Source of the DNA: a virus
Strand: one strand, 5' to 3'
Virus record (IMG/VR): IMGVR_UViG_3300033149_001989
Location: 1-64,000 of that record
DNA length: 64,000 bases
Of this stretch, positions 40,968 to 63,740 are shown one piece after another. A program made the translations under genes and the position numbers. The notes below the pieces were generated by a model. The model saw nothing but the letters and a program-made list of their open reading frames with translations. It was not told the DNA's origin and searched no databases. Positions within the stretch are counted from its first letter, which is position 1, and each line of letters begins with the position of its first letter.

Positions 40968-41153
40968 TCATTCTTGTTTTTTGGCCTTTTCTTTATATAA
41001 ATCATCCCGCTGCTCAGGCGTTAGTTTCCTGAATGCTTCGAAACAATTATTTTTGGTAAAACACGAAAATCTAAATAGGCACTTGTTGCACAGATTCGTG
41101 CCGAGAAAAGGTTGGTCTCCCCTTAGTAATGCTGCGTTGTTCATTTGAACCAT
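40968..41153 (-). CDS. Small protein with CxxCxxRFxCxT motif
   Basis: CNKCLFRFSCFT; TAAGGA RBS. Confidence 0.6.
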   Translation of the reverse strand: MVQMNNAALLRGDQPFLGTNLCNKCLFRFSCFTKNNCFEAFRKLTPEQRDDLYKEKAKKQE

Positions 41154-41352
41154 TCCTTAATCGCCAACGTTTCTCCCTTAGCGTCTTAACTCTTTTATTA
41201 ATACCCTCTGCGGGAAAGGTAATTACTAAATCGCCATTTGACGTATAACATTTATATCTCAAAGCGCACCCATCACAATTAGTACAGTCGCACCAGAAAG
41301 AATCGTATTGTTTACCATTTGTATCTCGGATGAGTATTTGTCTACACTTCAT
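41071..41352 (-). CDS. Small protein with CxxCxxRYxCxT motif
   Basis: WCDCTNCDGCALRYKCYT; ATGA overlap with the upstream gene. Confidence 0.6.
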   Translation of the reverse strand: MKCRQILIRDTNGKQYDSFWCDCTNCDGCALRYKCYTSNGDLVITFPAEGINKRVKTLREKRWRLRNGSNEQRSITKGRPTFSRHESVQQVPI

Positions 41353-41813
41353 TGGTTTCTGTGTCGGCAGCACTCACTAACATCAATAAATGGAATCTCG
41401 TCAACTAAACCATTATATCCGTGAATAAGTTCTTGTAATTGGTCTTCATTCATATTCGATAATTCAGCAGAATCAATCATATGTATAATATTATCACGCA
41501 ATTCCCTGGCTTCTAAATAAATCTGATGAATACGGGTATCTTTCCAAGGTGCTATATCATTTAATAGTTTTTCTTGGTAAGATTTAATATCATTTATTTT
41601 ACCCTCATCGAATAAGGATACCGCAACGTTATGTGCCCACCTATTATCATTAAATCTACTTGATTGTGCAGGATAGTGTAGTAGCGTTGTCTCTTCAACA
41701 AATTTTACTTTGTGGCGACGGTGCATATTGCTTATCGCTTGAAACGTAGCGTAGGTACGTCTCTTCAATACAGAGTCAGGTCTACCGAATAATTTCATTG
41801 TTTTCCTTTTCAT
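41349..41813 (-). CDS. Hypothetical protein
   Basis: 154 aa, AGGAG RBS directly after the tmRNA. Confidence 0.65.
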   Translation of the reverse strand: MKRKTMKLFGRPDSVLKRRTYATFQAISNMHRRHKVKFVEETTLLHYPAQSSRFNDNRWAHNVAVSLFDEGKINDIKSYQEKLLNDIAPWKDTRIHQIYLEARELRDNIIHMIDSAELSNMNEDQLQELIHGYNGLVDEIPFIDVSECCRHRNQ

Positions 41814-41824
41814 TATATCTCCTG

Positions 41825-42164
41825 TGGAGGTGGGGAAGGGTCGAACTTCCCGTCCAATATGTCTCCCATTATAATTTCTACAGGTTTAGTTACTTTTTCA
41901 ATTTTCGAAAGGTTTTAGAAAGCAACATCTAAAACTCTCTAGCTTAATTATTTTTACAGTCTTATTAAGCAGCGACTGGTTCTGCTGAGAAACTTTCTTC
42001 TATAACAGCCTCAGCGTCACCGTTGTAGAAGAGTAGCCCTTCATCGAGAACTACGATAAGTACTGATTTCTCAGTTATTTTTTGTGGGCTGTTTTTAATC
42101 TGTTCCCACCTAAGATTACCTGCTTATATAATAAGCCAACACATTGTCGAATCCATGCACCCCC
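41825..42164 (-). ncRNA. ssrA: tmRNA (ssrA)
   Basis: 5' GGGGGTGCATGGATTCGAC; 3' GGAAG-TTCGACC-CTTCC T-arm and CACCTCCA; acceptor stem has the G3-U alanine determinant; internal tag ORF after ATAACT ends VAA-TAA-TAA. Confidence 0.95.
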
Positions 42165-42263
42165 GTGTTATCTATGCTCTGCTAAGGTATCCCGAACTAT
42201 TTTAAAATAACGGGATAGGACATTTCTGCATTTCTTATTTCAAAAATATTTTTATTTTTACCC

Positions 42264-42304
42264 CTATATATACTATATCAGTTTTATCCGACTTTGACCA
42301 GTTT
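42264..42304 (-). promoter_or_regulatory. Putative phage-specific promoter upstream of tmRNA
   Basis: AAACTGGTCAAA-N12-TGATATAGTATAT, matching 14641-14678. Confidence 0.45.
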
Positions 42305-42311
42305 AAACTAG

Positions 42312-42719
42312 TCATAAATTAACAAATTTCTTTTGTTTCGTGCTTTTTTCTCGCCAAACGTTTATCAAGTCTATGTCATCTGGTTTTAAACTAAAGATAA
42401 AGTCGAAAAGTAACATATCAAATTCGTTTGAGACATAAATGTCGGGCAAAGCAAGTACATCTGTCCCGACATCCAGCACGGGTTCCTTACTTTCAGGACC
42501 ATCAATGTAAATACCTATACAATTCTTTCTAATGACTATTTCAGCCTTAAATTGATAGTTTTTTTGTAATGGCTCAATTGGAATTGGTAAGAACATCTCA
42601 CCACTCCAGGGAAGACGTTTTAGAGTACGTTGAGCTATTGTTACTTCGTTAAGTAATTTATCATCAATGGTTAATTTATAGGGTTCACCAAAAACCCCAC
42701 ACACAAATAATGTTTTCAT
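42312..42719 (-). CDS. Hypothetical protein
   Basis: 135 aa; ATGA overlap with the upstream gene. Confidence 0.6.
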   Translation of the reverse strand: MKTLFVCGVFGEPYKLTIDDKLLNEVTIAQRTLKRLPWSGEMFLPIPIEPLQKNYQFKAEIVIRKNCIGIYIDGPESKEPVLDVGTDVLALPDIYVSNEFDMLLFDFIFSLKPDDIDLINVWREKSTKQKKFVNL

Positions 42720-42913
42720 TTTCTTCTAGCCTTCTCAACTATAATACCGATGTCACCAATCTTCTTACATTTAAACCACTCTCTAGCTGTGACAAATATG
42801 TATTTGTCACGACACGTCATACACCGAAAACGAAGCAAGCAAGAGGCACACTCACCGTGACACCAAGAATAACTGATGTATTTATCATCTTCAGTAACTA
42901 ATCTTCTAATCAT
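42716..42913 (-). CDS. Small protein with CxxCxxRFxCxT motif
   Basis: WCHGECASCLLRFRCMT; directly downstream of a consensus promoter. Confidence 0.65.
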   Translation of the reverse strand: MIRRLVTEDDKYISYSWCHGECASCLLRFRCMTCRDKYIFVTAREWFKCKKIGDIGIIVEKARRK

Positions 42914-42925
42914 CTTCCCATTATA

Positions 42926-42954
42926 ATTATATCATACGAAGGCAAAGTTGTCAA
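42926..42954 (-). promoter_or_regulatory. Sigma70 promoter
   Basis: TTGACA-17-TATAAT with TG extension. Confidence 0.85.
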
Positions 42955-43028
42955 GCCTTAAACGTAGGTTTTTATATATAAGTGCCGACATTACGGAACG
43001 AAGTTTGAAAAAATTTTTATAATTTTGG

Positions 43029-43052
43029 GAATGGGACGGCAAGTTTAAAAAT
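43029..43052 (+). repeat. Direct repeat copy 1 GAATGGGACGGCAAGTTTAAAAAT
   Basis: Matches 47901-47925 with one extra A in the second copy. Confidence 0.8.
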
Positions 43053-43451
43053 TGTTCTTATTGCGTGAGATGACCACAACAACGTGAAGATGTGCCACCC
43101 GCCCTATTTTTTAACGCTGGGGCGGGCGGCTATCTCAGTTCCAAGTATCATATAAGTCTTTACCGTCAATACGTAGGTAAAGATTTAAGGTGTCAACGTA
43201 ATAGGTATGCTGTTTTGTGATTAAGTCACAAAGTAATGTTAGGTAATCAAAAGTAGACAAAAACATAAATCACCCCCGTTTTTTGGTTTTACTTTGTCGC
43301 ATAGCATTTAAATCCTCTACTTGCTTTTTGTGAATTATACAAGTATTGCAATTCTTGTGTTTGCAATCTAAACAAGACATAAAGCACCTCTCATTTTTTA
43401 TTGCTAGTTTCATTTTATAGTCTCGAAACTAGCAAACTGTGACTATAGAGG

Positions 43452-44078
43452 TTAGCTAGGTTCGTCTTGGTTTTCAGCTAGGATGCGAGCTTGCGCATCA
43501 GTATCACTTTTTAATTTAATCTCAGGTGTATCAAGACTATCGTCACGGTATCCTGACCGTTTACTTATAGGTATCTTCCTTGGTGAATACTGATAACGCA
43601 ATTTTTTGCTTCCATCTTCCCATCCAGCTATGTGGACTGATAGTAATTTGGGTTTTGACTTGTCTACCACATGGGGAGAATGAATCATCGTCATCCCACC
43701 AATACCATCAAAAGCTGATATTAAATTGTCTGTTAGGGTAGTTGCGGTTTTAGCAACTTCTTTGAAGAGTACTATCATTTGTTTTGAAGACAATTTAACA
43801 TCACCCCGTTGAAATTTAATTGCTGTATTGATGGGTGCAAGAAAATCTTGCGTTTCGATAATTAAATTGTCTCTTGTTTGCTGGTCTTGCTCTCTCTTAC
43901 CACTATTAGATGGTTTATTGAGAGCACTGATAGCATTAAGGTACTCTTCGAACTCAATTCCGAAAATTTTAGCATCTTCAGCTTGACGCTTGGTAATATC
44001 AGCTTCAGTAACCCCGTCAATCTTTGCTAGGTTTTCGTATTCTTTGCGTTTTCTACCTAGTGTTGACTTGCTTATCAT
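43452..44078 (-). CDS. Hypothetical protein
   Basis: Start MISKST after a GGAGAGG RBS; about 208 aa. Confidence 0.65.
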   Translation of the reverse strand: MISKSTLGRKRKEYENLAKIDGVTEADITKRQAEDAKIFGIEFEEYLNAISALNKPSNSGKREQDQQTRDNLIIETQDFLAPINTAIKFQRGDVKLSSKQMIVLFKEVAKTATTLTDNLISAFDGIGGMTMIHSPHVVDKSKPKLLSVHIAGWEDGSKKLRYQYSPRKIPISKRSGYRDDSLDTPEIKLKSDTDAQARILAENQDEPS

Positions 44079-44274
44079 TTTATTACCTCTCCGTTTAGTT
44101 TTATCAATTTTACTACTTTGGTAGTCATTCACCTAGCATTGATTTACTAGCTTGGTACCAGTATAGCAAACTGGACTCAGTATCTCTACTGATAGCTTTA
44201 TGTTGCTTACTCTTACCTTTGCAACTAGGTTTATTGTTTTATCATTCATACTCCATATTTTTTATTCTACTCCA

Positions 44275-44303
44275 ATTATAAAGGATAATTCTTAATTTGT
44301 CAA
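44275..44303 (-). promoter_or_regulatory. Sigma70 promoter
   Basis: TTGACA-17-TATAAT. Confidence 0.85.
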
Positions 44304-44811
44304 GTGGTTTTTAGGGTTTTTTGGACTAATTTTAAAAAATTCGCTAAAAATCTAGCAAGGAGTAGCTGCTGGTTTTATACATATTTTCGTATGTCAAATT
44401 GGTACAAAAGCCATGGTATAGAACAACGAACAGGCAAAAATGCCCGAACCAGAACAACCAAACAGAACTGGCACCCCCTCTCGGCTAGTCGGCTATTGTC
44501 GGCTTCATGCTGAGTAGCAAAAATGCCGTAGATGATAAAAAATATGGCAAATATGCCAATGGTTGAACGGAAACAAACTATCAAGACTAGACTGTATTTT
44601 CAGGCTCAAATCTATTTATTTACACCCAAAAAACACTTCGCACAAAAAATTGCTACATCATGCTCTTCTACAAATTCGCCGTTTTCAATAATAGCAAAAT
44701 TGCCTGAGCTAGAATAACCAAGTTTTACTATATGGCAATTCTGCCAGATTGTAGAACAGCAGAGGGCAATGAGTTTTCGTACTACCCTCTAACTTTGTGG
44801 TGATTTTTTAT

Positions 44812-45102
44812 TTACTTACTTACCCAAAATTCACATTCCGCATCATCATCTATCCATTCTAGTGGTAATACCCAGACATAACCTTGCTTGTCAAATAGGA
44901 TTAGGTTATTAGAGTCATCAAATGTAGCACAACGTTTACGAGAGTTACATTTTATCTCCGCATTTATGATGGTATTAGGAAGATACGGAATTTTACCTTG
45001 CTCATACCAAAGTTTTGCTACTTTGTCACATTCTATATTGTTTTTGCAATTGTGACACTGACCTGACTCCTTTCTGGTAAATTTACTGTCTATGTAGTCC
45101 AT
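44812..45102 (-). CDS. Cys-rich hypothetical protein
   Basis: AGGAGGT RBS directly downstream of a promoter. Confidence 0.7.
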   Translation of the reverse strand: MDYIDSKFTRKESGQCHNCKNNIECDKVAKLWYEQGKIPYLPNTIINAEIKCNSRKRCATFDDSNNLILFDKQGYVWVLPLEWIDDDAECEFWVSK

Positions 45103-45127
45103 TACTACACCTCCTATATTTTCTTAC

Positions 45128-45156
45128 ATTATACCATAGTACATAATATTTGTCAA
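45128..45156 (-). promoter_or_regulatory. Sigma70 promoter
   Basis: TTGACA-17-TATAAT with TG extension. Confidence 0.88.
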
Positions 45157-45317
45157 GTTAAATTTGTGGCATACTTTCGGCTATTGATTATCAGAGGCAA
45201 TAATGCCTAATTGCAGTAAGGGCAAATATGCCTGGAGATGAACGGCATTCAATTTAAATTTGGGTACTATTGCCAAAGGGCTGAACAGGCAATATGGGAT
45301 TGGCGCCTTGGGCACTA

Positions 45318-45342
45318 AGAAAGGGGCGAAAAGCCCCTTTCT
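45318..45342. terminator. Intrinsic terminator hairpin
   Basis: AGAAAGGGGC-GAAAA-GCCCCTTTCT perfect stem. Confidence 0.7.
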
Positions 45343-45408
45343 CAAACCCAATATATCTTTACTTAATCGGCGGAACTCACCTCCCTTCTACTAGCAGTCA
45401 GGTGCCGC

Positions 45409-45612
45409 TTACTTGACCTTCACCACAACACCGTCACGTACCTCTACCTGAGCATACCAACGGTGTGGCTCTGGATAGTGAGGACCTTCCACAAATTCGA
45501 TACCGTTCTCTTTGGGGGTTCCTAAGCCAGGAGCATACAAAGTAATCTTGTCCCCACGTGCCACAGCTTCCTTGAATGCTTTTTTGTTTTTGAAGTTAAT
45601 GCTTGTATACAT
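45409..45612 (-). CDS. Small phage hypothetical protein
   Basis: AAAGGAG RBS; NFKNKKAFKEAV...VEGPHYPEPHRWYAQV resembles a recurrent phage family. Confidence 0.75.
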   Translation of the reverse strand: MYTSINFKNKKAFKEAVARGDKITLYAPGLGTPKENGIEFVEGPHYPEPHRWYAQVEVRDGVVVKVK

Positions 45613-45628
45613 TTTATAACTCCTTTCT

Positions 45629-45841
45629 TCATTTAATGTGGTCTGCCATAAAATCCCAATGCTCTTTGAAGACTTTACTGCCAGCTTTGTGCTTGCGGTT
45701 GCATTTGGTACAGAAGTAGGATTTAATAGCAGGTTTTGCCCTCTCTTCTGCTATCGCTTTGTCAACCTGAGCCTGACGCTCTGCAAGCATCTCTTTGGTC
45801 GGGTGTGCCGCATACCAATCTTCCTTCTTCCAGATCCTCAT
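45629..45841 (-). CDS. Small zinc-finger protein (possibly leaderless)
   Basis: CTKCNRKH...H motif; ATG about 10 nt after the -10 box. Confidence 0.6.
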   Translation of the reverse strand: MRIWKKEDWYAAHPTKEMLAERQAQVDKAIAEERAKPAIKSYFCTKCNRKHKAGSKVFKEHWDFMADHIK

Positions 45842-45851
45842 TGTTACTTAC

Positions 45852-45880
45852 ATTGTAACATATAGCCCGAAATTTGTCAA
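45852..45880 (-). promoter_or_regulatory. Sigma70 promoter
   Basis: TTGACA-17-TACAAT with TG extension. Confidence 0.8.
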
Positions 45881-46020
45881 GTCCCACTTGAATGCCAGGA
45901 GCTGTTATTAGGACAAAATTGCCAGACCAAATAAAAGGCAATAGTGCCCAGGACTGAACAGGAGATAGGCTCCGCTTTCCAGCTCTCTGACTGGATTAAA
46001 GCAAATCCTATCTTCAAGTG

Positions 46021-46176
46021 CTAGGCTTTTGTGACAGTTAACTTTATCTTATCAGGGTTGCCAAGCTCAGCGACTTCCGTCTTAAGGAGATAAAGCTGTT
46101 TAGGATGACCGTCTGACTGTTCGGCAAACCTGATGGTATTCTTGGTTACTTTGTCTTTGTATAGTATAACTTCCAT
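46021..46176 (-). CDS. 51-aa protein missing from the ORF track (MEVILYKDKVTKNTIRFAEQ...IKLTVTKA)
   Basis: AAGGAG RBS, ATG start and TAG stop, followed by a GAAGATAGG...CCTATCTCC hairpin. Confidence 0.7.
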   Translation of the reverse strand: MEVILYKDKVTKNTIRFAEQSDGHPKQLYLLKTEVAELGNPDKIKLTVTKA

Positions 46177-46330
46177 CTAACTCCTTCCTTGCCAGTGAGT
46201 GACAGGTGGGATAGCAATTACACCATTCACCACAGTAATGACACCCAAGCGGGCAATTATTGACTGGTGTTGCGTTTTTAATAATTTTCATTTTAACCCC
46301 CGATAACTCCGATTGCTAATGGTGCCTCCC

Positions 46331-46525
46331 TTACAAAGATTTCAACACTGACTTGAGAGCATCAGCATCTTTGCACGCCTGAGCAATTGCTTGCTGCTTA
46401 TGCTGGAGACTACAAAAGTTAAAACCATTTGGCTCATTATGAATAGCAAGACCAAGTATGGCTCTAACACTGATAGTCAACTTGTTGAGCGTGCCGTTAA
46501 GAGCAAGTTCATCGTTATTAGTCAT
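46331..46525 (-). CDS. Hypothetical protein
   Basis: AAAGGAGG RBS. Confidence 0.65.
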   Translation of the reverse strand: MTNNDELALNGTLNKLTISVRAILGLAIHNEPNGFNFCSLQHKQQAIAQACKDADALKSVLKSL

Positions 46526-49064: not shown

Positions 49065-49529
49065 ATGACCGAAGCCAAAGCAAAAGCGGAGAGAGTGGAT
49101 AATAGCATCCGCCAAGAACAAGATGAAGTCGCTGAACAGCGCCGTAGGGGTAATTTGGCTTGGAGAATAGCAAGGGAAATTGATACGCTATCCTTTGATA
49201 AGGATGGTATTATTTTTATCACTGATTGTAAATTCTCCGATAATGACATCTTCTACATAGACAGCAATGACATTGCCAAAGGGTTGGATACTGCAATATC
49301 AATTCAGAATTGTGTAGATAGGTATGGTGTCCCAGTACAGTTTAGAGTTGATATGCACTTTCGTCGCCACAGGTCACGTAATCGTAAGTATATCGTCATT
49401 ACTGAAGCAGATAGAGGCTATTCAATCAAAGTTACCAGAGCTAAAAGAATTAGCACACAAAGAGTAAGCAAAGCAACGGAAGCGTCAAAGTCAGAGAATA
49501 AATTAGAAAGGAGGCACCAAATGAAATGA
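49065..49529 (+). CDS. Hypothetical protein
   Basis: GAGGTG RBS; operon packing. Confidence 0.65.
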   Translation: MTEAKAKAERVDNSIRQEQDEVAEQRRRGNLAWRIAREIDTLSFDKDGIIFITDCKFSDNDIFYIDSNDIAKGLDTAISIQNCVDRYGVPVQFRVDMHFRRHRSRNRKYIVITEADRGYSIKVTRAKRISTQRVSKATEASKSENKLERRHQMK

Positions 49530-50203
49530 AGGCAAAAGTGATTTTGGAAGGGAAATCAATAAGCCCACCTCCAGGTACCCCTGTTGCTTCATCTCTAGAC
49601 AGCAGGTATGGTGGTGGCAGAAAAGGTAAAATTCTTGGTGTTCCAGTATGGCTTAAAGGAATTTCACCCACTTGCGAGAAGCTAAATTATGACCGTTCAC
49701 CATATTATGAAAGAGCGGCATATATTATTAGTGAAATGCTTGGTCTAAACCTTGTCCCGCCGACAATACTTTACTTACTAGAAGGCGAAGTAGTATCTGC
49801 TATGAAGTGGATGACTAGGGCAGAGGCTGCGTGGGATAGAGCAGAGGAAACCGACCCCCAGTGGAAACTGCGACTTGATGTATTTGATTATCTTATTGGT
49901 AACACTGACAGACATTGTGGCAACTGGTTAATCACGAAAACAGGTAGGGTGTGGGCGATTGATAATGCTTATGCTTTTAACTTTGCAAGTTATGATAATG
50001 GGCGTGGATATGGAGACGAATTTGACTTGAGAAAGGGAAGCAAATTGCCTACGAAGATTGTTCTAAAGATGCGGCAAACAGTGGAAAATCCAGATTACTT
50101 TCGTAGCCAACTGAATGGGTTGATAGATAAAGAAATAATAGAGGCTATCTTAAAAAGGATGGAGAAGATAGTAAAGAAAATAGAGAAAGGAGGTGCCGAG
50201 TGA
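49526..50203 (+). CDS. PI3/4-kinase-like / HipA-like protein kinase
   Basis: YERAAYIIS...GLNLVPPT, DYLIGNTDRHCGNWL catalytic loop, AIDNAYAF. Confidence 0.8.
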   Translation: MKAKVILEGKSISPPPGTPVASSLDSRYGGGRKGKILGVPVWLKGISPTCEKLNYDRSPYYERAAYIISEMLGLNLVPPTILYLLEGEVVSAMKWMTRAEAAWDRAEETDPQWKLRLDVFDYLIGNTDRHCGNWLITKTGRVWAIDNAYAFNFASYDNGRGYGDEFDLRKGSKLPTKIVLKMRQTVENPDYFRSQLNGLIDKEIIEAILKRMEKIVKKIEKGGAE

Positions 50204-52267: not shown

Positions 52268-52541
52268 ACTAGCAATAGCATTTGTCGGGCTTAATGCTCT
52301 GGATGCGTTCCTGACATTAAAGATACTAGAACAGAACGGAACAGAACTAATGCCCCTTGCTAGAACAGTTATAGAACAACCATTGTTATTCTGGTCATTT
52401 AAAATAGGTGGCAGCACATTAGCGGCTTACCTTGTGCTTAGGCTGAACAATAGAAAATTTAGGTCTGCGAGTATTTTGGGGATACTGGTAATGGTTATGG
52501 TAGGTATTTGTATGTTTAACCTAGTAGGTATGCTAACTTGA
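52245..52541 (+). CDS. Small membrane protein (DUF5658-like)
   Basis: LNALDAFLT...ELMPL...FKI; three hydrophobic segments. Confidence 0.65.
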   Translation: MRYEICHKLAIAFVGLNALDAFLTLKILEQNGTELMPLARTVIEQPLLFWSFKIGGSTLAAYLVLRLNNRKFRSASILGILVMVMVGICMFNLVGMLT

Positions 52542-52566
52542 CATCATTCTTGGCATATAATAAAAT
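52538..52566 (+). promoter_or_regulatory. Sigma70 promoter
   Basis: TTGACA-17-TAAAAT. Confidence 0.6.
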
Positions 52567-52594
52567 AAAGACATTGAGAAAATGGGAGGAAACC

Positions 52595-53278
52595 GTGCTT
52601 AGTAACAGCGAAGTAGCTAACCAATTTGCACTTGGCAAAACACGTGGTAAAAGCAATCGTATGACGATTGAGGGTGATACTCTCTACTCTTACTCGGCAC
52701 CGATTGCGATTAGAGATGGTGAGAAATTTATTATCTCGAATAGAGCGTCATTTCTAGGGGGATGCCCCTATTCAATGACTACCTCTCATCATATATCTTG
52801 CGTTTACTATGCTTGTAAAGGAAAGGGCACGATAAGGCTGGTTGATGGTTGGGCAGAGCGTGGTAAACCTGAGTTTTATATTCCTCAATTACCTAGTTAC
52901 AAGACAGTCAGTGGGCTTATAAGAGGGTTTGTTACCCATCCATATTGGAATGGCACATGGACAGGAATATGGCACCCCGACACAGGAACTAAGGAAGTCC
53001 ATTGGCGAACAAAGAACGACCAACTTATCTCGCCAGAGGGTGATGTAGTAGCATTTCGTGAGTATATAAGACAGCCTTGTAATAAGGACTGTGATAATTG
53101 CCTTGCTCGGTTTCTTTGTCTGTCTAATAAAGAATTATTTAATGGGTATGTTGTAACAATTATAAAGGATAGCCCATACTTCGAAAAAGTAAATTATCAC
53201 ATTCAGAAAGCATACAAGTCTTATCGGTGTAAGTATCCCTCTAACGATTTGATGCTAGTTAGAAATACATATAAGTAA
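52595..53278 (+). CDS. Hypothetical protein carrying a CxxCxxRFxCxS motif
   Basis: GGGAGG RBS before GTG; N-terminal domain GDTLYSYSAPIA...YSMTTSHH; PCNKDCDNCLARFLCLS. Confidence 0.75.
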   Translation: MLSNSEVANQFALGKTRGKSNRMTIEGDTLYSYSAPIAIRDGEKFIISNRASFLGGCPYSMTTSHHISCVYYACKGKGTIRLVDGWAERGKPEFYIPQLPSYKTVSGLIRGFVTHPYWNGTWTGIWHPDTGTKEVHWRTKNDQLISPEGDVVAFREYIRQPCNKDCDNCLARFLCLSNKELFNGYVVTIIKDSPYFEKVNYHIQKAYKSYRCKYPSNDLMLVRNTYK

Positions 53279-55591: not shown

Positions 55592-56506
55592 ATGATAACT
55601 TACCAAGATAAAAATCATTCACTATACGAAGGTTTGCCATTTATGGAAATTCGGGGGAATAGGATACCATTTCCCTGTTTTGCTGAGGTTAAACTCGATG
55701 GCGAATTTCAATACGTTATAAAAAATAAAGGTAAGGTATTCTTATTGAACAAAAGGGAGCACGGCAGAATACGAGAGGGTATGCCAATTACCAAGTTAGA
55801 TATTCCAGATAACACGATACTGTTAGGAGAATTAGTTTGGGGAGCAGGCAAATTCTTTTATGATTTTGCTAAACATAAATTGTCTCCAGATAACAATTTG
55901 GGAATATTTGGGTGCCTGCGGTGGGATGGTGAGGATATTTGGAAAACTAAAAATTATTTGGATGTTAGGAAATTTCTGGAAAGCCAGAAGTTTTATAATA
56001 GCAAAGTTGCTCTGACACCAAAAGCGATATGCCGAAACCAACAGGAACTAGATGGCTTTTTCAACAAAGTAGTTACTGCTGGTTATGAGGGGATTGTAAT
56101 TATAGACCCATATTCAAAGTTTGTAAATGGGGTAACAGTAAGACGAGCAAAGAAAAAGTTTGTTGCTGATAATGACTTTGTTATCATCGGCTTCCAAAAT
56201 GAAACGAAGCGAGCAAAAACACTTTCGGTTCTGGTGGGGCATAGAGTAAATGGTAAAGTTAAACGTTTATGCTATGTTGGTGGTGGGTTCACTTTAGAGC
56301 AAAAAAATACTTTATTAAGGGTTCTAAAGGATATGATTATCGCAAAGAATGGCGAAGAGTATTTAGTAGACCCCAAAATTATCATAACAGTAAAGCATTA
56401 TGGAATAATTAGGAATGATAAAGGTGAAGTTCACTCTTTACGCCATCCTCAATTCAAATGTTTTAGGTTAGATAAAGCAGTAAACCAGATAGATACAATT
56501 AGGTGA
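55592..56506 (+). CDS. ATP-dependent DNA ligase (minimal adenylation + OB domains)
   Basis: EVKLDGE (KxDG), LGEL, GYEGIV, YVGGGF, SLRHPQF...RLDK. Confidence 0.88.
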   Translation: MITYQDKNHSLYEGLPFMEIRGNRIPFPCFAEVKLDGEFQYVIKNKGKVFLLNKREHGRIREGMPITKLDIPDNTILLGELVWGAGKFFYDFAKHKLSPDNNLGIFGCLRWDGEDIWKTKNYLDVRKFLESQKFYNSKVALTPKAICRNQQELDGFFNKVVTAGYEGIVIIDPYSKFVNGVTVRRAKKKFVADNDFVIIGFQNETKRAKTLSVLVGHRVNGKVKRLCYVGGGFTLEQKNTLLRVLKDMIIAKNGEEYLVDPKIIITVKHYGIIRNDKGEVHSLRHPQFKCFRLDKAVNQIDTIR

Positions 56507-56534: not shown

Positions 56535-56810
56535 ATGAAACCAAGAGGCGACACAAATTGTAATGATTGTCCAAGACGTTTTGAGTGCTTTACTGGTAAA
56601 GGTGAAGCTTGCCCGACTATAAATGGTAGTGAGATAACCTATTGTTATCCTTGCTACAATAATGTTTGTATTGGGCTTAGTAAAGATGATACTAATGTAT
56701 TTTGGAAATATAGAATAACACCCGACCAAATGCTAAAGTTGGTACAACGAGCTAAGTTTCGCACTTACAAGAAATATAATAGAATTTATTTAGAGGTATT
56801 AGATGAGTAA
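56535..56810 (+). CDS. Small protein with CxxCxxRFxCxT motif
   Basis: CNDCPRRFECFT. Confidence 0.65.
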   Translation: MKPRGDTNCNDCPRRFECFTGKGEACPTINGSEITYCYPCYNNVCIGLSKDDTNVFWKYRITPDQMLKLVQRAKFRTYKKYNRIYLEVLDE

Positions 56811-57132
56811 AGGCAGTGTTGTAAATCCAAAAGATGTTGTCATCAAAGTTACTGAGATAGAAGATGAAAAAGGTAAGCCAATTGTAGTAGTACTTCCTGT
56901 TGCTGCTGGTGGCAGGAAAGAATTGTGGATAATGTCTGATGTTCGTTGTATGGATAAGGACACCGATGTTTGTAATAAATGCCGTCTGCGTTATCAATGT
57001 TATAGTGGTAATGTTCTCAAGATAGATTATCTTGATACATTTGACCCCAATGATTTAACTCCTTTGAGCAGGAAGATTGAAGCACATTTAAGACGGTACA
57101 AACCAGAGGTTGACAGTAAGCAGGGCAAGTGA
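56803..57132 (+). CDS. Small protein with CxxCxxRYxCxS motif
   Basis: CNKCRLRYQCYS; GAGGT RBS. Confidence 0.7.
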   Translation: MSKGSVVNPKDVVIKVTEIEDEKGKPIVVVLPVAAGGRKELWIMSDVRCMDKDTDVCNKCRLRYQCYSGNVLKIDYLDTFDPNDLTPLSRKIEAHLRRYKPEVDSKQGK

Positions 57133-57146: not shown

Positions 57147-57860
57147 ATGAAGTTTTATTGTAATCGCTGTAAATCTGCATTTACCACTTTCAGTAAAGAG
57201 GGTGGTGAAGCCAAGAGGAAAGAAAGGGAGTTTGCCTTTTCTCACGGAATTGAGAATAAAATGAGATGCCCAAAGTGTGGTGCATCTAATCCGCCCACAA
57301 GACTTGCTAACCCAAAGTATCAAAAACACTACCGCACAAGGTACCAACCGAAGCCAAGATATGCTACTGGTGAAGAAGATTATACTCCACCAACGATTAT
57401 CTTGCATCCAGATTGTCAAAAACGGATAATTAGTTCGGTGGGCAGTATTGGTGGTATGAAGGTTGTTTGTGAAGGATGCCCCCAAGTATTTAACTGCTGG
57501 ACTGGAAATGTTGATGATGGGTTGTGTAGCGAAATAAAGGCACCCGATGCGGACAAGGTAAAAGAAGCAACCAAAGCAATTGTTGAGCAAGATAAAATTT
57601 TGCTACAACTACAGAAGCAGCGAGCAGTATTTGGCAAAGTGAAATTCGGTTATGAAAGCAGAAACGGTTGCTGGTATTGTCGATTCGGGGGTACAGTTTG
57701 GAAGTTAGATACTAGTGACATTGAAGCGATAAAGAGTGGTAATTTTGGCACAAAAAAGACCACAATCATCAGGAATTCCCTGAAAAATAAGAAATTATCA
57801 CTAGCTGCGGTTACGTCACTACTGTTATTAGAGATGGAAGTGGCATCAAGTGGGCGTTGA
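57147..57860 (+). CDS. Zinc-ribbon protein with variant CxxCxxxFxCxT motif
   Basis: CNRC...CPKC; CEGCPQVFNCWT. Confidence 0.7.
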   Translation: MKFYCNRCKSAFTTFSKEGGEAKRKEREFAFSHGIENKMRCPKCGASNPPTRLANPKYQKHYRTRYQPKPRYATGEEDYTPPTIILHPDCQKRIISSVGSIGGMKVVCEGCPQVFNCWTGNVDDGLCSEIKAPDADKVKEATKAIVEQDKILLQLQKQRAVFGKVKFGYESRNGCWYCRFGGTVWKLDTSDIEAIKSGNFGTKKTTIIRNSLKNKKLSLAAVTSLLLLEMEVASSGR

Positions 57861-57897: not shown

Positions 57898-58230
57898 ATG
57901 AAAACCAGAGAAAATGATTTTGAGCATTATGTAAAGTGTCATTGTGGCTGGGAAGGGTTCTCCGCATGGATGATACACGGTTATGAGGGGTATGGGCACG
58001 GTGAAGATTGTGATGTTGAACCGATGGATTACTGCCCAAAATGTCGCACACCAGAAATAATGGTTGAGGCAATAGTTGAATGTCACGGTGATTGTCTGAA
58101 TTGCTCAGATAGGTTTCTATGCTTGACTGTGTTCGACAAGTTGCCTGTCCTACGGAAACATTATGACGAAGACTCTCGTCAAAAAAGCAATACCAAATTC
58201 TATAAAGGAGAGGATAATGGCAAGAAGTAG
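57898..58230 (+). CDS. Cys-rich protein with CxxCxxRFxCxT motif
   Basis: CHC...CPKC and ECHGDCLNCSDRFLCLT. Confidence 0.7.
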   Translation: MKTRENDFEHYVKCHCGWEGFSAWMIHGYEGYGHGEDCDVEPMDYCPKCRTPEIMVEAIVECHGDCLNCSDRFLCLTVFDKLPVLRKHYDEDSRQKSNTKFYKGEDNGKK

Positions 58231-58972
58231 GGGATTTAAAATGTCTATTGCTGTTGGTGGAATGTTTTTAATTCCTGTTAGATTAGATAAAACCACCAGT
58301 GATAGCAAAATCAGCCTCCACGAATATCATAAAGATGATATGGGTAGCAGTGGTCGCAAGGCTTACTGTAAGTCTTGTGGTAAAGACCTAACCTCAGCTG
58401 ATATTGTTAAGGGTATTGAGGTAACGAAGGGGCAAGTGGTAACATTCTCTAAAGAGGAACTGGAAAGCCTACCACTAAGTACCACCAAGAATATTGAAGT
58501 TGACGGGTTTGTTAAGGCTGAGGAAATAAATCGTCTTGCTCTCGGCACTTCTTATTACCTTAGCCCTGATGAAACAAGCTCTCAGGCGTATAATCTGTTC
58601 GCACACGGGTTGAAGAAAATGGGTAGAGTTGCGGTGGGAAAGGTTGCTTTACGTAATCGTGAGAACTTGTGTATTGTCTATCCGATGAGTGGTGGTTTGG
58701 TACTTTCTATGATGTGCTGGCACGATGAATTCAAGGATAATCCATCAATTCCCAAGACAGAAATTACCGACACTCAGGCAGACCTGATGGATGTTATCAT
58801 CAAGAAGTATTCTAAACCATTTGACCATAGCGTGTATAGTGACCAGTATAATGATGCTTTAAAGAAGATGGCTGAACAAAAACTTAATGGTGATATTATC
58901 ACAATCAGCACTCCACAGGAACAGCAACCTCAAAATATTGAGGACGCCCTGAGAGCATTGGCTGCAGCATAG
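58217..58972 (+). CDS. ku: Ku DNA end-binding protein
   Basis: IPVRL, DIVKGIEV, EELESL, IEVDGFV, YYLSPD, VAVGKVALRNRE, YSDQY; AAAGGAG RBS. Confidence 0.9.
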   Translation: MARSRGFKMSIAVGGMFLIPVRLDKTTSDSKISLHEYHKDDMGSSGRKAYCKSCGKDLTSADIVKGIEVTKGQVVTFSKEELESLPLSTTKNIEVDGFVKAEEINRLALGTSYYLSPDETSSQAYNLFAHGLKKMGRVAVGKVALRNRENLCIVYPMSGGLVLSMMCWHDEFKDNPSIPKTEITDTQADLMDVIIKKYSKPFDHSVYSDQYNDALKKMAEQKLNGDIITISTPQEQQPQNIEDALRALAAA

Positions 58973-59014
58973 ATAATGTCTGAAAAGTTCAGATACCTCT
59001 GGTGAGGAGTAAAT

Positions 59015-59383
59015 ATGAATAGTAAAATAGGTAGAGCAGTTAGTTTTGTAACGGCACTTGCTATCTTTGCTGGTGTTTTGGCTGGAATGTCGGCATTGTT
59101 TATGCTTGCGTGGAATGTAGTAATGGTACAGGCAACAAATGCTGAACCACTTACATTTCTGCAAACATATGGGGGTGTAACTCTTGTGTTTGGCGGTATT
59201 GCTTTAGTTAAATTCATCCATAGTTATTTAGAAGGAACTAGGGAACGAATAAGAGCGAAGGTGGCTAAGGAGGCGATGGAAGGGTTAATGAACGAAATGG
59301 AGAAGATGAACGCCGAAATGGAAAAGACGAAGGGTGATGATGAGCTACCAGATGATGACAGTGTATTTCGGCACTTTATGTAA
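59015..59383 (+). CDS. Membrane protein (2 transmembrane helices)
   Basis: Two hydrophobic helices; GAGGAG RBS. Confidence 0.7.
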   Translation: MNSKIGRAVSFVTALAIFAGVLAGMSALFMLAWNVVMVQATNAEPLTFLQTYGGVTLVFGGIALVKFIHSYLEGTRERIRAKVAKEAMEGLMNEMEKMNAEMEKTKGDDELPDDDSVFRHFM

Positions 59384-59725
59384 ATGAAGAATTTACCAAA
59401 AATTTTAAAAGAACATATAGCAAACCAAAATAGTATGCTTGGTTCAACTGCGAAGTCAGGTGAGTTGAATAATTGGTTGAACGGTCAATTAAAAGAATTA
59501 AAGACGGCAAACCCCGAACTTTACGATTATATTATAAGTAGGAGTAAGTCATTTGCTAATGGTATAATGATGGTGCGTGACCCATATTCGATAGCCGTTT
59601 CATTATCATTAGAATATGTTTTGCTTTTGCGACTACTTGACATCGGCTTTGGTAAAGAGGCTAGTTTAAAGAAATTTACTGATATGATGGATAAGTGGGG
59701 GTTAGAGGGGCTGAATGGTTTATAG
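59384..59725 (+). CDS. Hypothetical protein
   Basis: Operon packing. Confidence 0.6.
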   Translation: MKNLPKILKEHIANQNSMLGSTAKSGELNNWLNGQLKELKTANPELYDYIISRSKSFANGIMMVRDPYSIAVSLSLEYVLLLRLLDIGFGKEASLKKFTDMMDKWGLEGLNGL

Positions 59726-60230
59726 GAAAGGCTACGGTTTTACTGCTGTTGACAAGGAAGAAGTCAGAAGCAAGTTTCTTGCCGTTCCAGAGAATAAGAA
59801 ATTATGGGATAGGTTAGAAGAAACAGTTAACCGTTTGCCTTGGACACGTTATTTAGTTGATAGTCTCAAAGATTGGATAGACCATCACGGCAGTTTAACC
59901 GCCAATCAAAAGTCACTGGTTACTAAATTATATTTGGATTGTTGTATTACTACTGAGGATAGATTGGCAGAGCAAAGGACTACACGAAAACTTTGTTATC
60001 GGCTGAATGAATTGGAGTTGGGCAAGTTACAAGTATTTATTAGTGATGTTTTATACAAAACTAATACAAGACCGTTTACGTCGGGACAAATAAACGCACT
60101 AAACAAGATTGCCCAAAGACACCAAAAAAAGTTGGCAGAAATTCCTGAGATACTTGATGAAAATTTCGATGGGTGGTTTTTCATAGAGCCTGATAAGTCC
60201 GAAGTTGACAATTCGGAAGGCATATGGTAA
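59715..60230 (+). CDS. Hypothetical protein with internal repeat (SLKDW...LTANQ / DVLYK...FTSGQ)
   Basis: GAGGGG RBS; operon packing. Confidence 0.6.
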   Translation: MVYRKGYGFTAVDKEEVRSKFLAVPENKKLWDRLEETVNRLPWTRYLVDSLKDWIDHHGSLTANQKSLVTKLYLDCCITTEDRLAEQRTTRKLCYRLNELELGKLQVFISDVLYKTNTRPFTSGQINALNKIAQRHQKKLAEIPEILDENFDGWFFIEPDKSEVDNSEGIW

Positions 60231-60233
60231 TAT
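60205..60233 (+). promoter_or_regulatory. Sigma70 promoter
   Basis: TTGACA-17-TAATAT with TG extension. Confidence 0.75.
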
Positions 60234-60262
60234 ACAAGAGAAAATAGTAAAGGGGATAGCAA

Positions 60263-61444
60263 ATGGAAAATATTGAACTCGTCAAATTATTGTTGCTTCA
60301 ATGCGGCAAAGTAGGAATTACACCAATGCTTTGGGGGCGTCACGGTATTGGTAAAAGTATGATTGTGAGGAGCATCTTTGAGGATGGGGGATATGAGGTT
60401 ATTGACCTTAGACTTGGACAGTTAGAAGTTGGTGACCTTATTGGTATGCCTGCTCAGGAATACTACTGTCCAAGTTGTAAAACAAAGTTTGGTTTTGCGG
60501 CTCGGTTCACTAATTGTCCTCTTTGCGAACAGAAAGGTGGTAAAGTTCCCATTTGCGGACAGACTGTTTGGTTACCCCCAAGTTGGTTTCCACAGCATGG
60601 CGAGAAGCGGTGCATCTTCTTTGACGAATTCAATCGTGGTCGGTTAGATGTTCAGCAGGCTGCTTTTCAGATTGTTCTTGACCGCAGAATACATACTCAC
60701 AAAATTCCTGATGATACCATTATCATTTGTGCCTGTAACCCACCATCAAGTGATGCAGGCACTGGTCAGGAATATAATGTTGAAGAACTTGACCCCGCCC
60801 TGCTAGACCGATTTGTGAATATTAAATTCACTTTAACTACTGATAACTGGTTACGGTGGGCACGAGAGAATAAAATCTTACAAGATATTATAGATTTTAT
60901 TGCTACTGAGCAGAAATTTCTCGGCAATGATGCAATAGATATTCCTATTGATATTACACCCTCTCCACGCTCCTACGAATTTCTGTCTAAACTGCTCTCT
61001 GGCGATACAATTCCTAAACGATACTGGACAGAGGTTGCTGAAACGGTAATTGGGTCAACTGCGGCTATTGCGTTTGTTCAATCCTTAAAGACTGATTTGG
61101 ATAAACCAATTAAGGCTAAAGACATATTTGACCATTTCGCTAAGGTTAAGAGTAAGGTTGAGGCTCAGGTTGGAACTGCGGATGATGGAAACGCTAGATT
61201 TGACTTACTCAGACTTACTCTTGATGAAATCACCCAATGTCTTGAGAATGATAAAAGCAGAAAGTATAATGAAAAACAACTTAATAATCTGGCTGATTTC
61301 CTTGTTATGCTTCCACAAGACTTGTCATTCTCTATGATTAAAGACTTGGCTACTAACCAAGATGTAAATGAGCGGCTGTTCCTTAATCGTGATGATTTGT
61401 TTACAATCCTAAAGACTGCTCGTAAAGGTGATATGAATGGCTAA
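60263..61444 (+). CDS. MoxR/dynein-related AAA+ ATPase with zinc-ribbon insert
   Basis: GRHGIGKS, DLIGMP, FFDEFNR, ACNP, LDPALLDRF, SPRSY; CPSC...CPLC insert. Confidence 0.9.
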   Translation: MENIELVKLLLLQCGKVGITPMLWGRHGIGKSMIVRSIFEDGGYEVIDLRLGQLEVGDLIGMPAQEYYCPSCKTKFGFAARFTNCPLCEQKGGKVPICGQTVWLPPSWFPQHGEKRCIFFDEFNRGRLDVQQAAFQIVLDRRIHTHKIPDDTIIICACNPPSSDAGTGQEYNVEELDPALLDRFVNIKFTLTTDNWLRWARENKILQDIIDFIATEQKFLGNDAIDIPIDITPSPRSYEFLSKLLSGDTIPKRYWTEVAETVIGSTAAIAFVQSLKTDLDKPIKAKDIFDHFAKVKSKVEAQVGTADDGNARFDLLRLTLDEITQCLENDKSRKYNEKQLNNLADFLVMLPQDLSFSMIKDLATNQDVNERLFLNRDDLFTILKTARKGDMNG

Positions 61445-62969
61445 TAGTGAACTAATTGAGAGTGAAGTAATTGAACTATTGCTAGAGGGAAAGCACTTTT
61501 ATGGGCACTTCCTCCAGCAGTTTCGTAGACACGCTGTTAAAACAGGTATAGGTGAGGGCAATATCGTAGACACTCTTGGTGTTCTTATCAATGAGGATTT
61601 ACAACCTCACCTATACATAAATACTGATTTTTATAATAGTGGTGATTATGACCCAAAAAATCCTGCAAAACATAGTTGGGGGCTAACGCCAACTGAGAAG
61701 ATTGCTTTATTGGAACACGAAATACTGCATATTCTAAACAAGCATTTAATTCGCACCGAAAATCGTAATCACTATGTTGCTAATCTTGCCCAAGACCTAG
61801 CAATCAATCAGCATATCAAGGGGCTACCAAAGGGCGGTGGTTGTCCAAAGTGTAATGCTTTTGTAAGACTTACTCAGTTGGGACAGTTTAGAACTACTTG
61901 CCCTAGGTGTGGTGAGCTGCTTGACCCAAAGAAACATACATCAGAATGCCTCGATATTGGTAATTTTAAGATAGAGGGTAAAAAGTTAAATTTTGAACGA
62001 AACAAAGCGTTTGAGATTTATTACGATGCTCTCTGGAGTAAAATGCCAAAGTATATGGTAGAAATTGGAACTGCCATTACTGATAGTAAAGAAAAAGGTG
62101 CTAAAAGCAATATCAAGGGAGAATGTTCTGGTGGTACGGGTGATGGCACTTACAAGCAGAAAGAAGCTCAGGATAGTGAGAATAAGAATAAGGTTGGTTC
62201 AGGAAACAATGTTCAGATACAGGGTGTAGAAATACCAATGCCAATGGACAACCACGAAACTTGGGCTGCTGGTTCTGATAATCGGGAGATGGCTCACGAG
62301 AAAATAAAAGAAATGGCAAGGAAGGCGCTGCACAAAGCAAATGCTAAAAATCAGGGTAATATGCCAGGATGGTTGAAATCTCTTGTTGACCAATGCCTAG
62401 CACACAAGACAATCAGTTGGAAATCAGAACTGAAAAGGTTTTACGGTTTTCGGGAATTTTCGCACTTTGTCCCCACTCGAAAGAGGCTCAACCGCAGGTT
62501 TAGTATTGCATTCCCAGGCTACAAAGTTAAGCGGAAAGCACATATTGTCGTAGCGACGGATAGTTCGGGCAGTGTTTCTGATGAAGATTTTGCTAAATTT
62601 TGGGCAGAGATTATGACTATGTTCTCTGCTGGTGTTACCATAACTCACGTTGAATGTGATATGGATATTACTCACGTTCAACCATTCAAGAGAAAGCCAC
62701 CAAAAAATACTAAGATAAAGCGTTATGGATATGGTGGAACTACATTCAAACCACCATTTGAATTGGTAGAAAAAGGTCATTACAAGAATGGTAATGGTGA
62801 GGAATGGAAGTTAAAAACCAAAGTGGATGGTATCATCTATTGCACTGATGGTTATGGTGATTTTCCTAAGAAGATACCTTGTCCTACGATATGGGTTGTC
62901 ACGGCTGAACATAGCACTCACGGTTGGAGTCCAAAACTTGGTAAAATGATTGTGATGACAGAGGACTAA
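61437..62969 (+). CDS. Metallopeptidase-like (HEXXH) + VWA domain protein (DUF2201-type)
   Basis: LEHEILH...NLAQDLAIN; MIDAS DSSGS, GGTTF, TDGYG. Confidence 0.88.
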   Translation: MANSELIESEVIELLLEGKHFYGHFLQQFRRHAVKTGIGEGNIVDTLGVLINEDLQPHLYINTDFYNSGDYDPKNPAKHSWGLTPTEKIALLEHEILHILNKHLIRTENRNHYVANLAQDLAINQHIKGLPKGGGCPKCNAFVRLTQLGQFRTTCPRCGELLDPKKHTSECLDIGNFKIEGKKLNFERNKAFEIYYDALWSKMPKYMVEIGTAITDSKEKGAKSNIKGECSGGTGDGTYKQKEAQDSENKNKVGSGNNVQIQGVEIPMPMDNHETWAAGSDNREMAHEKIKEMARKALHKANAKNQGNMPGWLKSLVDQCLAHKTISWKSELKRFYGFREFSHFVPTRKRLNRRFSIAFPGYKVKRKAHIVVATDSSGSVSDEDFAKFWAEIMTMFSAGVTITHVECDMDITHVQPFKRKPPKNTKIKRYGYGGTTFKPPFELVEKGHYKNGNGEEWKLKTKVDGIIYCTDGYGDFPKKIPCPTIWVVTAEHSTHGWSPKLGKMIVMTED

Positions 62970-62970
62970 G

Positions 62971-63279
62971 TTGTCGAAGTTGCCAATTACTATTGAGGGG
63001 TATCTCGGTAATGATAACCAAGAAGTTGACCGTGACGAATACGGCAGAATTGTGGAGAATTTTTACTATCTTGGTTGTCCTAATCTGGATAGTGAGCATA
63101 AATTAGGTTGGTATGGACAACCAAGGTTTATCTATGATGTAGAGAAAGATATTACAGATATACTACAAAACAATCTCGGAAAGTATATTAGAATAACCAT
63201 TGAGGCAGTCGAAATCGGGGGCAGGGCGGAATGTGAGGTTTGTAAGCGGAGATTTGAATGTCTGACCAAAATAAAATAA
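62971..63279 (+). CDS. Small protein with C-terminal CxxCxxRFxCxT motif
   Basis: CEVCKRRFECLT at the extreme C-terminus; GAGGA RBS before TTG. Confidence 0.65.
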   Translation: MSKLPITIEGYLGNDNQEVDRDEYGRIVENFYYLGCPNLDSEHKLGWYGQPRFIYDVEKDITDILQNNLGKYIRITIEAVEIGGRAECEVCKRRFECLTKIK

Positions 63280-63740
63280 CTAGGCACAAAATTGTACTAT
63301 GCTCTAACTGCGGTTTTACGCACACAAATGTTAAACCGTATGCCACAGTAGATATGCGGGGCAATAATGCCGTTATGGTCATCAAAGCGTTATGCCCCGA
63401 ATGTCGAAAGGAGCAATTGAAGAACGAGACTCGTTTAGTAAATTGTGCTTATTGTGGATTAACGAAAGGAGAGAAACTACACCCAACTCTGATTGAACGG
63501 AGGGTGTTTGACGGGCAGAACACTTGCAATTTCTTTATTCAACTATGTGATGATTGCAAGAAGATACCTCATAACATAATTCGAGAAAAATTAGATAAAC
63601 AACTACAAAGCCTATGTAATAGTTGTGATGATAGGTTTAAATGCTTCACTGCACAACACACGGCTCCGATGAAAAGTTACCCCACAAGGGATGGGGTTCA
63701 CAGGAATACAAGGTCGAAGCGATTTAGGAGGATAGTATGA
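63258..63740 (+). CDS. Multi-zinc-ribbon protein with CxxCxxRFxCxT motif
   Basis: Four CxxC motifs plus CNSCDDRFKCFT. Confidence 0.7.
   Translation: MSDQNKITRHKIVLCSNCGFTHTNVKPYATVDMRGNNAVMVIKALCPECRKEQLKNETRLVNCAYCGLTKGEKLHPTLIERRVFDGQNTCNFFIQLCDDCKKIPHNIIREKLDKQLQSLCNSCDDRFKCFTAQHTAPMKSYPTRDGVHRNTRSKRFRRIV

Follow-up and report, generated by a model that had tools for sequence, protein, structure and literature searches.

The stretch of DNA analysed here, referred to as the window, covers the opening 64 kb of IMG/VR record IMGVR_UViG_3300033149_001989; this complete record of a virus is 133,760 bp long and has direct repeats at its termini. Between positions 40,968 and 63,740 it encodes ten proteins that share a short cysteine motif, C-x2-C-x2-R-[FY]-x-C-[FYLMW]-[TS], which an earlier reading made without database searches (the sequence-only reading) had described as a portable tag. 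A six-frame scan of the window with this strict pattern returned nine matches, and ten when the Arg position was left free; all ten copies fall within the open reading frames (ORFs) named in that reading, and none lies in 1-40,000. The motif is probably the core of a self-contained four-Cys metal-binding micro-domain of about 15-25 residues, a module that has spread, within the clade of this phage, to over 100 small proteins that are non-structural and unrelated to one another.

Related phages were collected as seven IMG/VR records, two found through the DUF2201/VWA protein (70% identity) and five through a DNA pattern. The whole genome of the studied phage (G000) was compared at the protein level with the relatives G001-G004, each of which has 63-106 proteins in common with the 246 of G000, at a mean identity of 47-55%. 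Judged from sequence, G000 and its relatives are one family-level clade of uncultured, tailed phages with genomes of about 134-153 kb. Motif counts are given as strict (C..C..R[FY].C[FYLMW][TS]) or relaxed.

On the minus strand of the window, a 61-aa carrier ORF (40968..41153) has its motif at 41055-41090, with the fourth Cys 4 residues downstream and four Cys in total. The 100-aa carrier at 41071..41373 (motif 41242-41277) has Cys 2 and 4 residues upstream of the motif; the triad and one further Cys are invariant in its orthologs (G001, G002 and G004), and it gives a weak DDE_Tnp_1_6 match below threshold. These two ORFs overlap by 83 nt in different frames (41071-41153, minus strand), and either the overlap is real or the upstream gene has a long, unconserved tail that is not translated as drawn. 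The 65-aa carrier at 42716..42913, on the same strand (motif 42815-42850, fourth Cys at a 3-residue spacer), has no homolog among G001-G004.

The remaining copies are on the plus strand. An internal motif (53090-53125) with its fourth Cys at a 3-residue spacer is found in a 246-aa ORF (52538..53278), whose homologs have the motif in G003 and G004 and lack it in G001 and G002. The 91-aa ORF at 56535..56810 has an N-terminal motif (56559-56594) that is kept in its G002 ortholog. It is followed by a 109-aa ORF (56803..57132, motif 56971-57006) with exactly four Cys, arranged as C-x7-C-x2-C-x5-C; all four are invariant in the eight sequences of this family, which are 23-38% identical, and the first spacer is 7 residues throughout except for a single 9. 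In the 237-aa ORF at 57147..57860, Val replaces the Arg (57468-57503), and this Arg-less variant, followed by GNVDDG, is conserved in four orthologs. The 110-aa ORF at 57898..58230 (motif 58093-58128, fourth Cys at a 4-residue spacer) has an ortholog in G001. The motif of the 102-aa ORF at 62971..63279 is C-terminal (63232-63267), 3 residues before the stop, and the sole additional Cys, 52 residues upstream, is invariant in four orthologs. Finally, the 160-aa ORF at 63258..63740 (motif 63615-63650) has 12 Cys in total, and nine further Cys are invariant across four orthologs, that is, one plus two sets of four. The extra Cys 3-8 residues upstream noted at the outset is indeed present in five of the ten copies; in the other five it lies 18-52 residues upstream or 4-6 downstream.

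Over the whole genome, 27 strict and 33 relaxed copies were counted, confined to 40,968-116,877, so that the original count of ten holds for the window but understates the genome. The carrier zone is the small-gene, non-structural part of the genome (40-118 kb). The outer parts (0-40 kb and 118-134 kb), which hold the tape-measure, tail, glycan and ribonucleotide reductase (RNR) genes, contain no carrier, and the statement that structural genes are free of the motif is confirmed. Carriers make up about one gene in eight in the phage and its relatives. The DNA pattern occurs 48, 30, 62, 40, 48, 34 and 16 times in the seven relatives, the last two being fragments (37-38% complete), compared with 0-1 times per genome for the reversed pattern.

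Comparison with shuffled controls had been proposed together with the motif, and it separates the motif clearly from chance. In 1000 within-protein residue shuffles of the 105 window genes, no strict match arose, versus nine observed; likewise, the five genomes have 26-50 strict copies each, versus none in 300 residue shuffles of each of the five proteomes. Of 252 CX2CX5C occurrences in the five genomes, 227 have [RK][FYW] at positions 7-8. The codons vary among copies (Arg as AGA, AGG, CGT, CGG or CGC; Cys as TGT or TGC), and therefore selection acts at the peptide level, as the sequence-only reading had held; this synonymous variation rules out a DNA repeat.

Searches of larger collections point to a virus-restricted distribution. 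A narrowed DNA pattern run against 185,579 species genomes matched 34 stretches, each once, of which 32 are compatible with chance (short or stop-containing frames, or ORFs with no other sign of the module); the only true copies in cellular genomes are on two contigs of one Rhodobacteraceae metagenome-assembled genome (MAG). Two of the MAG copies lie within 1.8 kb of each other and one more is on a 2.6-kb contig. The contigs are probably phage contigs binned with the MAG, and they give a weak hint of Rhodobacteraceae as the host. A profile of the 33 G000 copies, searched against 1.84 billion representative proteins, gave 38 matches at E<=0.001. All except one are proteins of 54-237 aa with the exact signature (37 proteins), many of them belonging to the studied phage; the remaining match, a eukaryotic C2H2 array, is a false positive. 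Three library proteins from outside the five genomes (P0002, P0015 and P0038) each contain two motif-like copies preceded at short range by a Cys, and one of the two copies in P0038 has the variant spacing C-x4-C-x5-C.

Alignment of 257 unique copies, in whose selection positions 11 and 12 played no part, gave the consensus C-[DEN]-x-C-x-x-R-F-[KR]-C-[FYW]-T-x-[RK], with [KPE] at position 5. Arg at position 7 is conserved at 90% (Lys in a further 9%), Phe at position 8 at 93%, an aromatic residue at position 11 at 85% and Thr at position 12 at 89%; the flanks show nothing except scattered Cys. The 245 complete ORFs have a median length of 109 aa (range 44-295) and contain the motif once in 242 cases, twice in 2 and not at all in 1. 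Its position may be N-terminal, internal or C-terminal: in 66 of the 245 ORFs at most 3 residues follow position 12, and others start with the motif.

The C-x2-C-x5-C triad is nearly always accompanied by at least one more Cys. A Cys is found within 25 residues upstream in 197 of the 245 complete ORFs, the commonest spacers being 3, 4, 7 and 9, and 178 of 245 copies have the fourth Cys at an upstream distance of 0-14 residues; 29 of the 245 ORFs have no Cys within 25 residues on either side. In the gene calls of the five genomes, three Cys and no more were counted in just 2 of 191 carriers; most often there are four (52 carriers), and the distribution rises again at eight (28 carriers). Small non-carriers have no Cys at all in 171 of 939 cases. 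Eighteen ortholog families have three or more members, with identities of 24-46%, and in every one of them the triad is invariant. Beyond the triad, a family has one (10 families), five (2 families), nine (1 family) or zero (5 families) invariant Cys, and never two, three, four or six. A Cys4 site accompanied by ordinary zinc ribbons would be expected to give a count of 1+4k. Across families, the extra invariant Cys lies 2-12, 23 or 52 residues upstream, or downstream.

Outside the motif, the carriers are otherwise dissimilar, as had been judged by eye. With the 12-mer masked, blastp found no pair below E 0.2 among the ten window carriers (best E 0.22-0.49). The 228 carriers of the five genomes fell into 128 BLAST clusters, comprising 82 singletons, 38 carrier-only clusters and 8 mixed clusters. 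Pairwise hhalign comparison of the 18 families gave a probability of at least 70 in 141 of 153 pairs when the motif was present, and in 1 of 153 pairs when the 14 motif columns were removed, with 152 of 153 pairs below 50 and a median of 0.1. These comparisons support a portable peptide module and not one paralogous family, in agreement with the portability first proposed.

A Pfam search of the 33 G000 carriers identified one L7/L12 C-terminal domain (E 8.5e-9) and weak zinc ribbons. The L12 carrier (69378-69737 of the genome, plus strand, 119 aa) consists of the L7/L12 C-terminal domain followed by the Cys module at the C-terminus. It is without the L10-binding N-terminal part, and its orthologs in G001 and G004 have both domain and module; a homolog search with it recovered only itself (1 protein among 12 candidates). 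The 150 carriers of G001-G004 matched nine families at E<=0.001, including uracil-DNA glycosylase (UDG, two members), L12 (one), intein/LAGLIDADG and DNA_pol_A (one member each), and ribbons. The UDG proteins of G001 and G002 have a 37-residue C-terminal extension containing C-x9-C-x2-C-x5-C; those of G003 and G004 end before this extension and have neither intein nor module; and that of G000 (74971-76476 of the genome, plus strand) is interrupted by an intein, absent from the G001 and G002 proteins, and is without the module.

Loss is seen as well. The G000 gene at 78704-79084 (plus strand) has a decayed copy in which Cys4 is replaced by Tyr and R-F-I-C-L-T is retained, while its orthologs in G001 and G002 have a full C-x3-C-x2-C-x5-C module. 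One mixed cluster contains motif-less homologs, and another an ortholog whose motif is swapped for a different Cys loop. The module is evidently one that can be added to an existing domain or lost from it. The motif is kept in 50 of 53 homolog pairs of G000 carriers, so the conservation of the signature in homologs, which had been named as a point on which the idea could fail, holds. Homologs in the relatives were found for 21 of 32 carriers, compared with 63 of 146 neighbouring non-carriers. By these alignments, the module is maintained by purifying selection in orthologs.

A metal site is most likely the best reading of these data, the fourth Cys being nearly universal and invariant within ortholog families. 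In the proposed module, the triad would be completed by one more Cys, usually 3-14 residues upstream; a Cys that is remote in the chain, as is sometimes the case, would serve as a staple. The four thiolates would hold a single metal centre, which could be Zn or a cluster of the [4Fe-4S] or [2Fe-2S] type. F8 and the position-11 aromatic residue would pack on this centre, and R7 and T12 would hydrogen-bond it or cap a short helix. Such a module would give a small protein a cheap folded knob, and may also offer a common surface to a shared partner. The iron-sulfur (Fe-S) centre that the sequence-only reading drew from the CX2CX5C spacing stands as far as a metal site goes; the same spacing also binds Zn, according to the accessible parts of PMC4312928 and PMC3466216, and therefore cannot decide the metal.

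Several points weigh against the metal-binding micro-domain or limit it. The metal could be either Fe-S or Zn, and Fe-S assembly genes of the IscA type (PF01521) and IscU type (PF01592) are absent from the phage. Four non-ligand residues are about 85-93% conserved in unrelated proteins, a degree of constraint beyond the usual needs of a bare metal site, which suggests an added common function. Five of the 18 families lack an aligned invariant fourth Cys, which may reflect misalignment of a variable spacer. AlphaFold2 (AF2) models were of low confidence: the mean predicted local distance difference test score (pLDDT) was 61.5 for the carrier at 56803-57132 with eight orthologs, and 64.0 for a module of 38 residues backed by an alignment of 118 modules; the motif scored about 51-70 in the two models. 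Foldseek returned no match in the PDB at E<=10, the VIA-align wide search found none of 48,161 chains with Z>=2, and profile searches of PDB sequences gave best E values of 0.19 and 0.26. The gene calls come from our own greedy ORF caller, with motif ORFs added manually.

Other database comparisons gave little to set beside the module. ESM Atlas yielded no usable feature match, and its structure rows were unrelated; the PHROGs matches were to eight unnamed families with one member each, and no PHROG, Pfam or PDB entry covers the motif. The 38-residue AF2 model shows, at low confidence, short helices over D-V-C-N and R-Y-Q-C-Y-S. Features of the module itself point in two directions. The distal yet invariant fourth Cys, the motif swapped for another Cys loop and the small size of the carriers point to a purely structural role; the conserved non-ligand residues, the single copy per protein, the terminal preference and the module's own ligand set point to an added common function.

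The alternative that survives best, possible although doubtful, keeps the metal site and thus overlaps with the micro-domain: the metal knob would mainly serve as an address tag, docking or controlling dozens of early proteins at one partner or at a redox or iron switch, with a host hub (RNA polymerase, ribosome or DNA) or a phage protein as candidate. The conservation of R7, F8, the position-11 aromatic residue and T12 at 85-93% across more than 100 unrelated families fits such a tag, as do the single copy in 242 of 245 ORFs, the termini within 3 residues of the motif in 66 of 245, the confinement of carriers to the non-structural 40-118 kb, and the appending of the module, with its own nearby fourth Cys, to UDG and to the L7/L12 C-terminal domain, both of which exist without it. 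However, no partner was found; a fourth Cys 23-52 residues away or downstream implies a motif embedded in a fold; and one ortholog's motif became a different Cys loop, while another lost Cys4 and kept R-F. Carriers are not more basic than non-carriers (median isoelectric point (pI) 8.3 versus 7.8; Mann-Whitney p 0.99), and general nucleic-acid binding is therefore not indicated. The MoxR-like (AAA_5)/DUF2201-VWA pair, one of the partners first suggested, is conserved in relatives and otherwise unlinked to the motif.

A more specific form of this idea is slightly more doubtful still: a metal-dependent label (Fe-S or Zn) would tie 30-60 otherwise unrelated early proteins per genome to one host or phage hub through an invariant R-F...aromatic-T surface. 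If this is true, the phage would have a proteome-wide equivalent of the PRANC/F-box tagging of poxviruses or of the cluster-mediated docking of WhiB-type proteins. Were the metal Fe-S, the whole protein set would in addition be sensitive to oxygen, iron or nitrosative stress together.

That the carriers are instead one ancient paralogous family, diverged until only the metal ligands are recognisable, is improbable. A comparable proposal is the zinc-ribbon expansion of Bacillus phage G, as outlined in the available portion of PMC7824862. Some local tandem arrays (G003 has copies every 250-300 bp) speak for such a history, and a few pairs survive masking, namely 74523/116536, 87163/87569 and one G003 pair with an hhalign probability of 79. 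Full-length paralogy had been named in advance as a way in which the motif could lose its interest, and the similarity between families vanishes once the motif columns are removed, as given above for 152 of 153 pairs; moreover, the position of the motif varies, it occurs on UDG and the L12 C-terminal domain, which are folds of independent origin, and homologous scaffolds have both gained and lost it.

Disulfides or a redox-active thiol switch without any metal are marginally less probable again. The even-number rule of triad plus one would also fit two disulfides, but metal sites repeatedly use C-x2-C-x5-C with one further Cys, according to the accessible sections of PMC3466216 and PMC4312928. 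The carriers are, moreover, cytoplasmic phage proteins with no indication of a signal peptide. The least probable alternative has the motif recognised by a modifying enzyme such as a phage radical SAM/SPASM protein, with thioether or other Cys chemistry like that of ribosomally synthesized and post-translationally modified peptides; SPASM maturases act on Cys-rich peptides and a Radical_SAM plus SPASM enzyme is encoded at 20349-21452 of the window, but this enzyme sits inside a glycosyltransferase/methyltransferase sugar cluster, the carriers (44-295 aa, with the motif anywhere, including inside enzymes) are not leader-core peptides, and the complete relative G004 has 40 copies by DNA pattern and no Radical_SAM match at E<=0.001, which makes the phage radical SAM partner named as one candidate by the sequence-only reading unlikely.

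Several neighbouring genes were identified alongside the carriers. A phage-encoded one-piece transfer-messenger RNA (tmRNA; Rfam RF00023, 112.6 bits, full model length) lies between carriers at 41822-42164 (minus strand) of the window. An ATP-dependent DNA ligase (55592-56506, plus strand) and a Ku beta-barrel protein (58163-58972, plus strand, E 6.4e-38) make up a pair resembling non-homologous end joining, with four motif carriers in between. A small protein with a PI3/PI4-kinase-like or HipA-like kinase domain (Pfam E 6.8e-9) is encoded in the early region at 49526-50203 (plus strand), and the RNR large subunit, with an ATP-cone and a LAGLIDADG intein, at 33625-36702 (minus strand); the small subunit NrdB (PF00268) had no match anywhere in the genome. 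Beyond the window, 26 tRNA genes including tRNA-Cys(GCA) are located at about 89.6-98.9 kb and at 106.5 kb of the genome, interleaved with six carriers. The ends of one carrier ORF (90510-90860 of the genome) overlap two predicted tRNAs, and its true start is probably further in.

If the metal-binding micro-domain is real, it would be among the smallest autonomous metal-binding modules known, and would represent a rare case of a virus reusing one micro-domain on 11-22% of its genes, in more than 100 unrelated proteins. It would provide a sequence handle for a large block of phage ORFans and a compact natural scaffold for protein engineering. Two testable questions would follow: is the stability of small phage proteins due to metal stapling, and does a single metal-dependent surface serve to address or regulate them collectively? 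A third is how dozens of newly made proteins obtain metal, and possibly Fe-S clusters, during infection when the phage has no assembly genes of its own.

The CX2CX5C spacing has precedents in the cluster loops of endonuclease III, MutY, WhiB and FNR. In WhiB, C-x(14-22)-C-x2-C-x5-C is followed by a G[VI]WGG turn, and in SPASM/Twitch domains C-x2-C-x5-C-x3-C lies inside a radical SAM enzyme. The logo has no WGG signal downstream of the motif, and WhiB was rejected, with no match in the nine families of the 150 carriers (E<=0.001) or in the 25 of 66 families listed for G000. The endonuclease III family and the helix-hairpin-helix (HhH) domain were likewise absent from those nine families. SPASM/Twitch was rejected because the residue at position 14 is R or K, not Cys, unless the protein ends there, and because the families listed for the carriers include no Radical_SAM domain. 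The classical C2H2 finger (C-x2-4-C-x12-H-x3-5-H) was rejected for want of a His pair after the motif; ZBTB7A fingers, met in the PDB profile search, matched over C-x2-C-x2-R-F only (E 0.19-0.93). Among IS1182-type transposases (DDE_Tnp_1_6, PF13751), two of three bacterial members have the triad and two of three a further upstream Cys, but without R-F at positions 7-8; membership of this family was rejected, since 1 of the 33 G000 carriers matches, at 17.7 bits versus a cut-off of 25.1.

In scale, the nearest system is Bacillus phage G, for which the available text of PMC7824862 describes a lineage-specific expansion of about 35 zinc-ribbon proteins. There too, dozens of small genes without assigned function share a Cys metal motif (PMC7824862, same portion). 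Unlike that single expanded domain family, as it appears in the same source, the carriers are unrelated outside 14 residues and have a triad plus one Cys, not a ribbon.

In form, the EBF/COE zinc knuckle is closer: H-X3-C-X2-C-X5-C, a Zn unit of about 14 residues that is autonomous and has short helices, in the account given by the accessible part of PMC4312928. The commonest local form of the phage module, x3-C-x2-C-x5-C, has the same spacing, and the AF2 model, at low confidence, also has short helices. The two differ in that the first ligand is Cys, not His, in the phage module, and that the R-F/aromatic-T signature occurs only there; the EBF/COE knuckle lies within a large eukaryotic DNA-binding domain (PMC4312928, as far as available). 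No COE match was found in the PDB profile searches or in Pfam (25 of 66 families listed for the G000 carriers, and the nine of the G001-G004 carriers).

The iron staple of Cas4 and AddB, in which one distant Cys and three C-terminal Cys bind Fe-S (PMC3466216, accessible sections), offers the other close parallel. Its cluster is of the [4Fe-4S] type, one Cas4 having [2Fe-2S] instead, and the integrity of the protein depends on the staple, in the parts of PMC3466216 and PMC4176176 available; Zn occupies these four Cys in a Cas4-like or related nuclease (PMC3466216, same sections). The Cas4/AddB/Dna2/Exo5 arrangement given there, C-Xn-C-X2-C-X5-C with a fourth Cys that may be distant, is also that of the phage module, and at least four Cys are present in 189 of 191 carriers, with 1+4k further invariant Cys in 13 of 18 families. 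By contrast, the carriers have no RecB-like PD-(D/E)XK nuclease domain, and the module is found in more than 100 unrelated proteins. Of the 66 families that the 33 G000 carriers matched at E<=1, the first 25 were listed, and neither PDDEXK_1 (PF12705) nor Cas_Cas4 (PF01930) is among these or among the nine families matched by the 150 carriers of G001-G004 at E<=0.001. In the genome, PF01930 has no match and PF12705 a single one, at 110101-110799, which is not a carrier; the triad of this PDDEXK_1 nuclease is without R-F or aromatic-T, and derivation of the module as a copy of the phage's own Cas4-like staple was rejected. With the fourth Cys local in 178 of 245 copies, the module is a local knuckle rather than a staple. 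A literature search, which did not cover supplementary files, found no description of the motif. Set beside these systems, the module is best read as an undescribed, virus-restricted form of the Cys4 metal knuckle or staple, used at an unusual scale.

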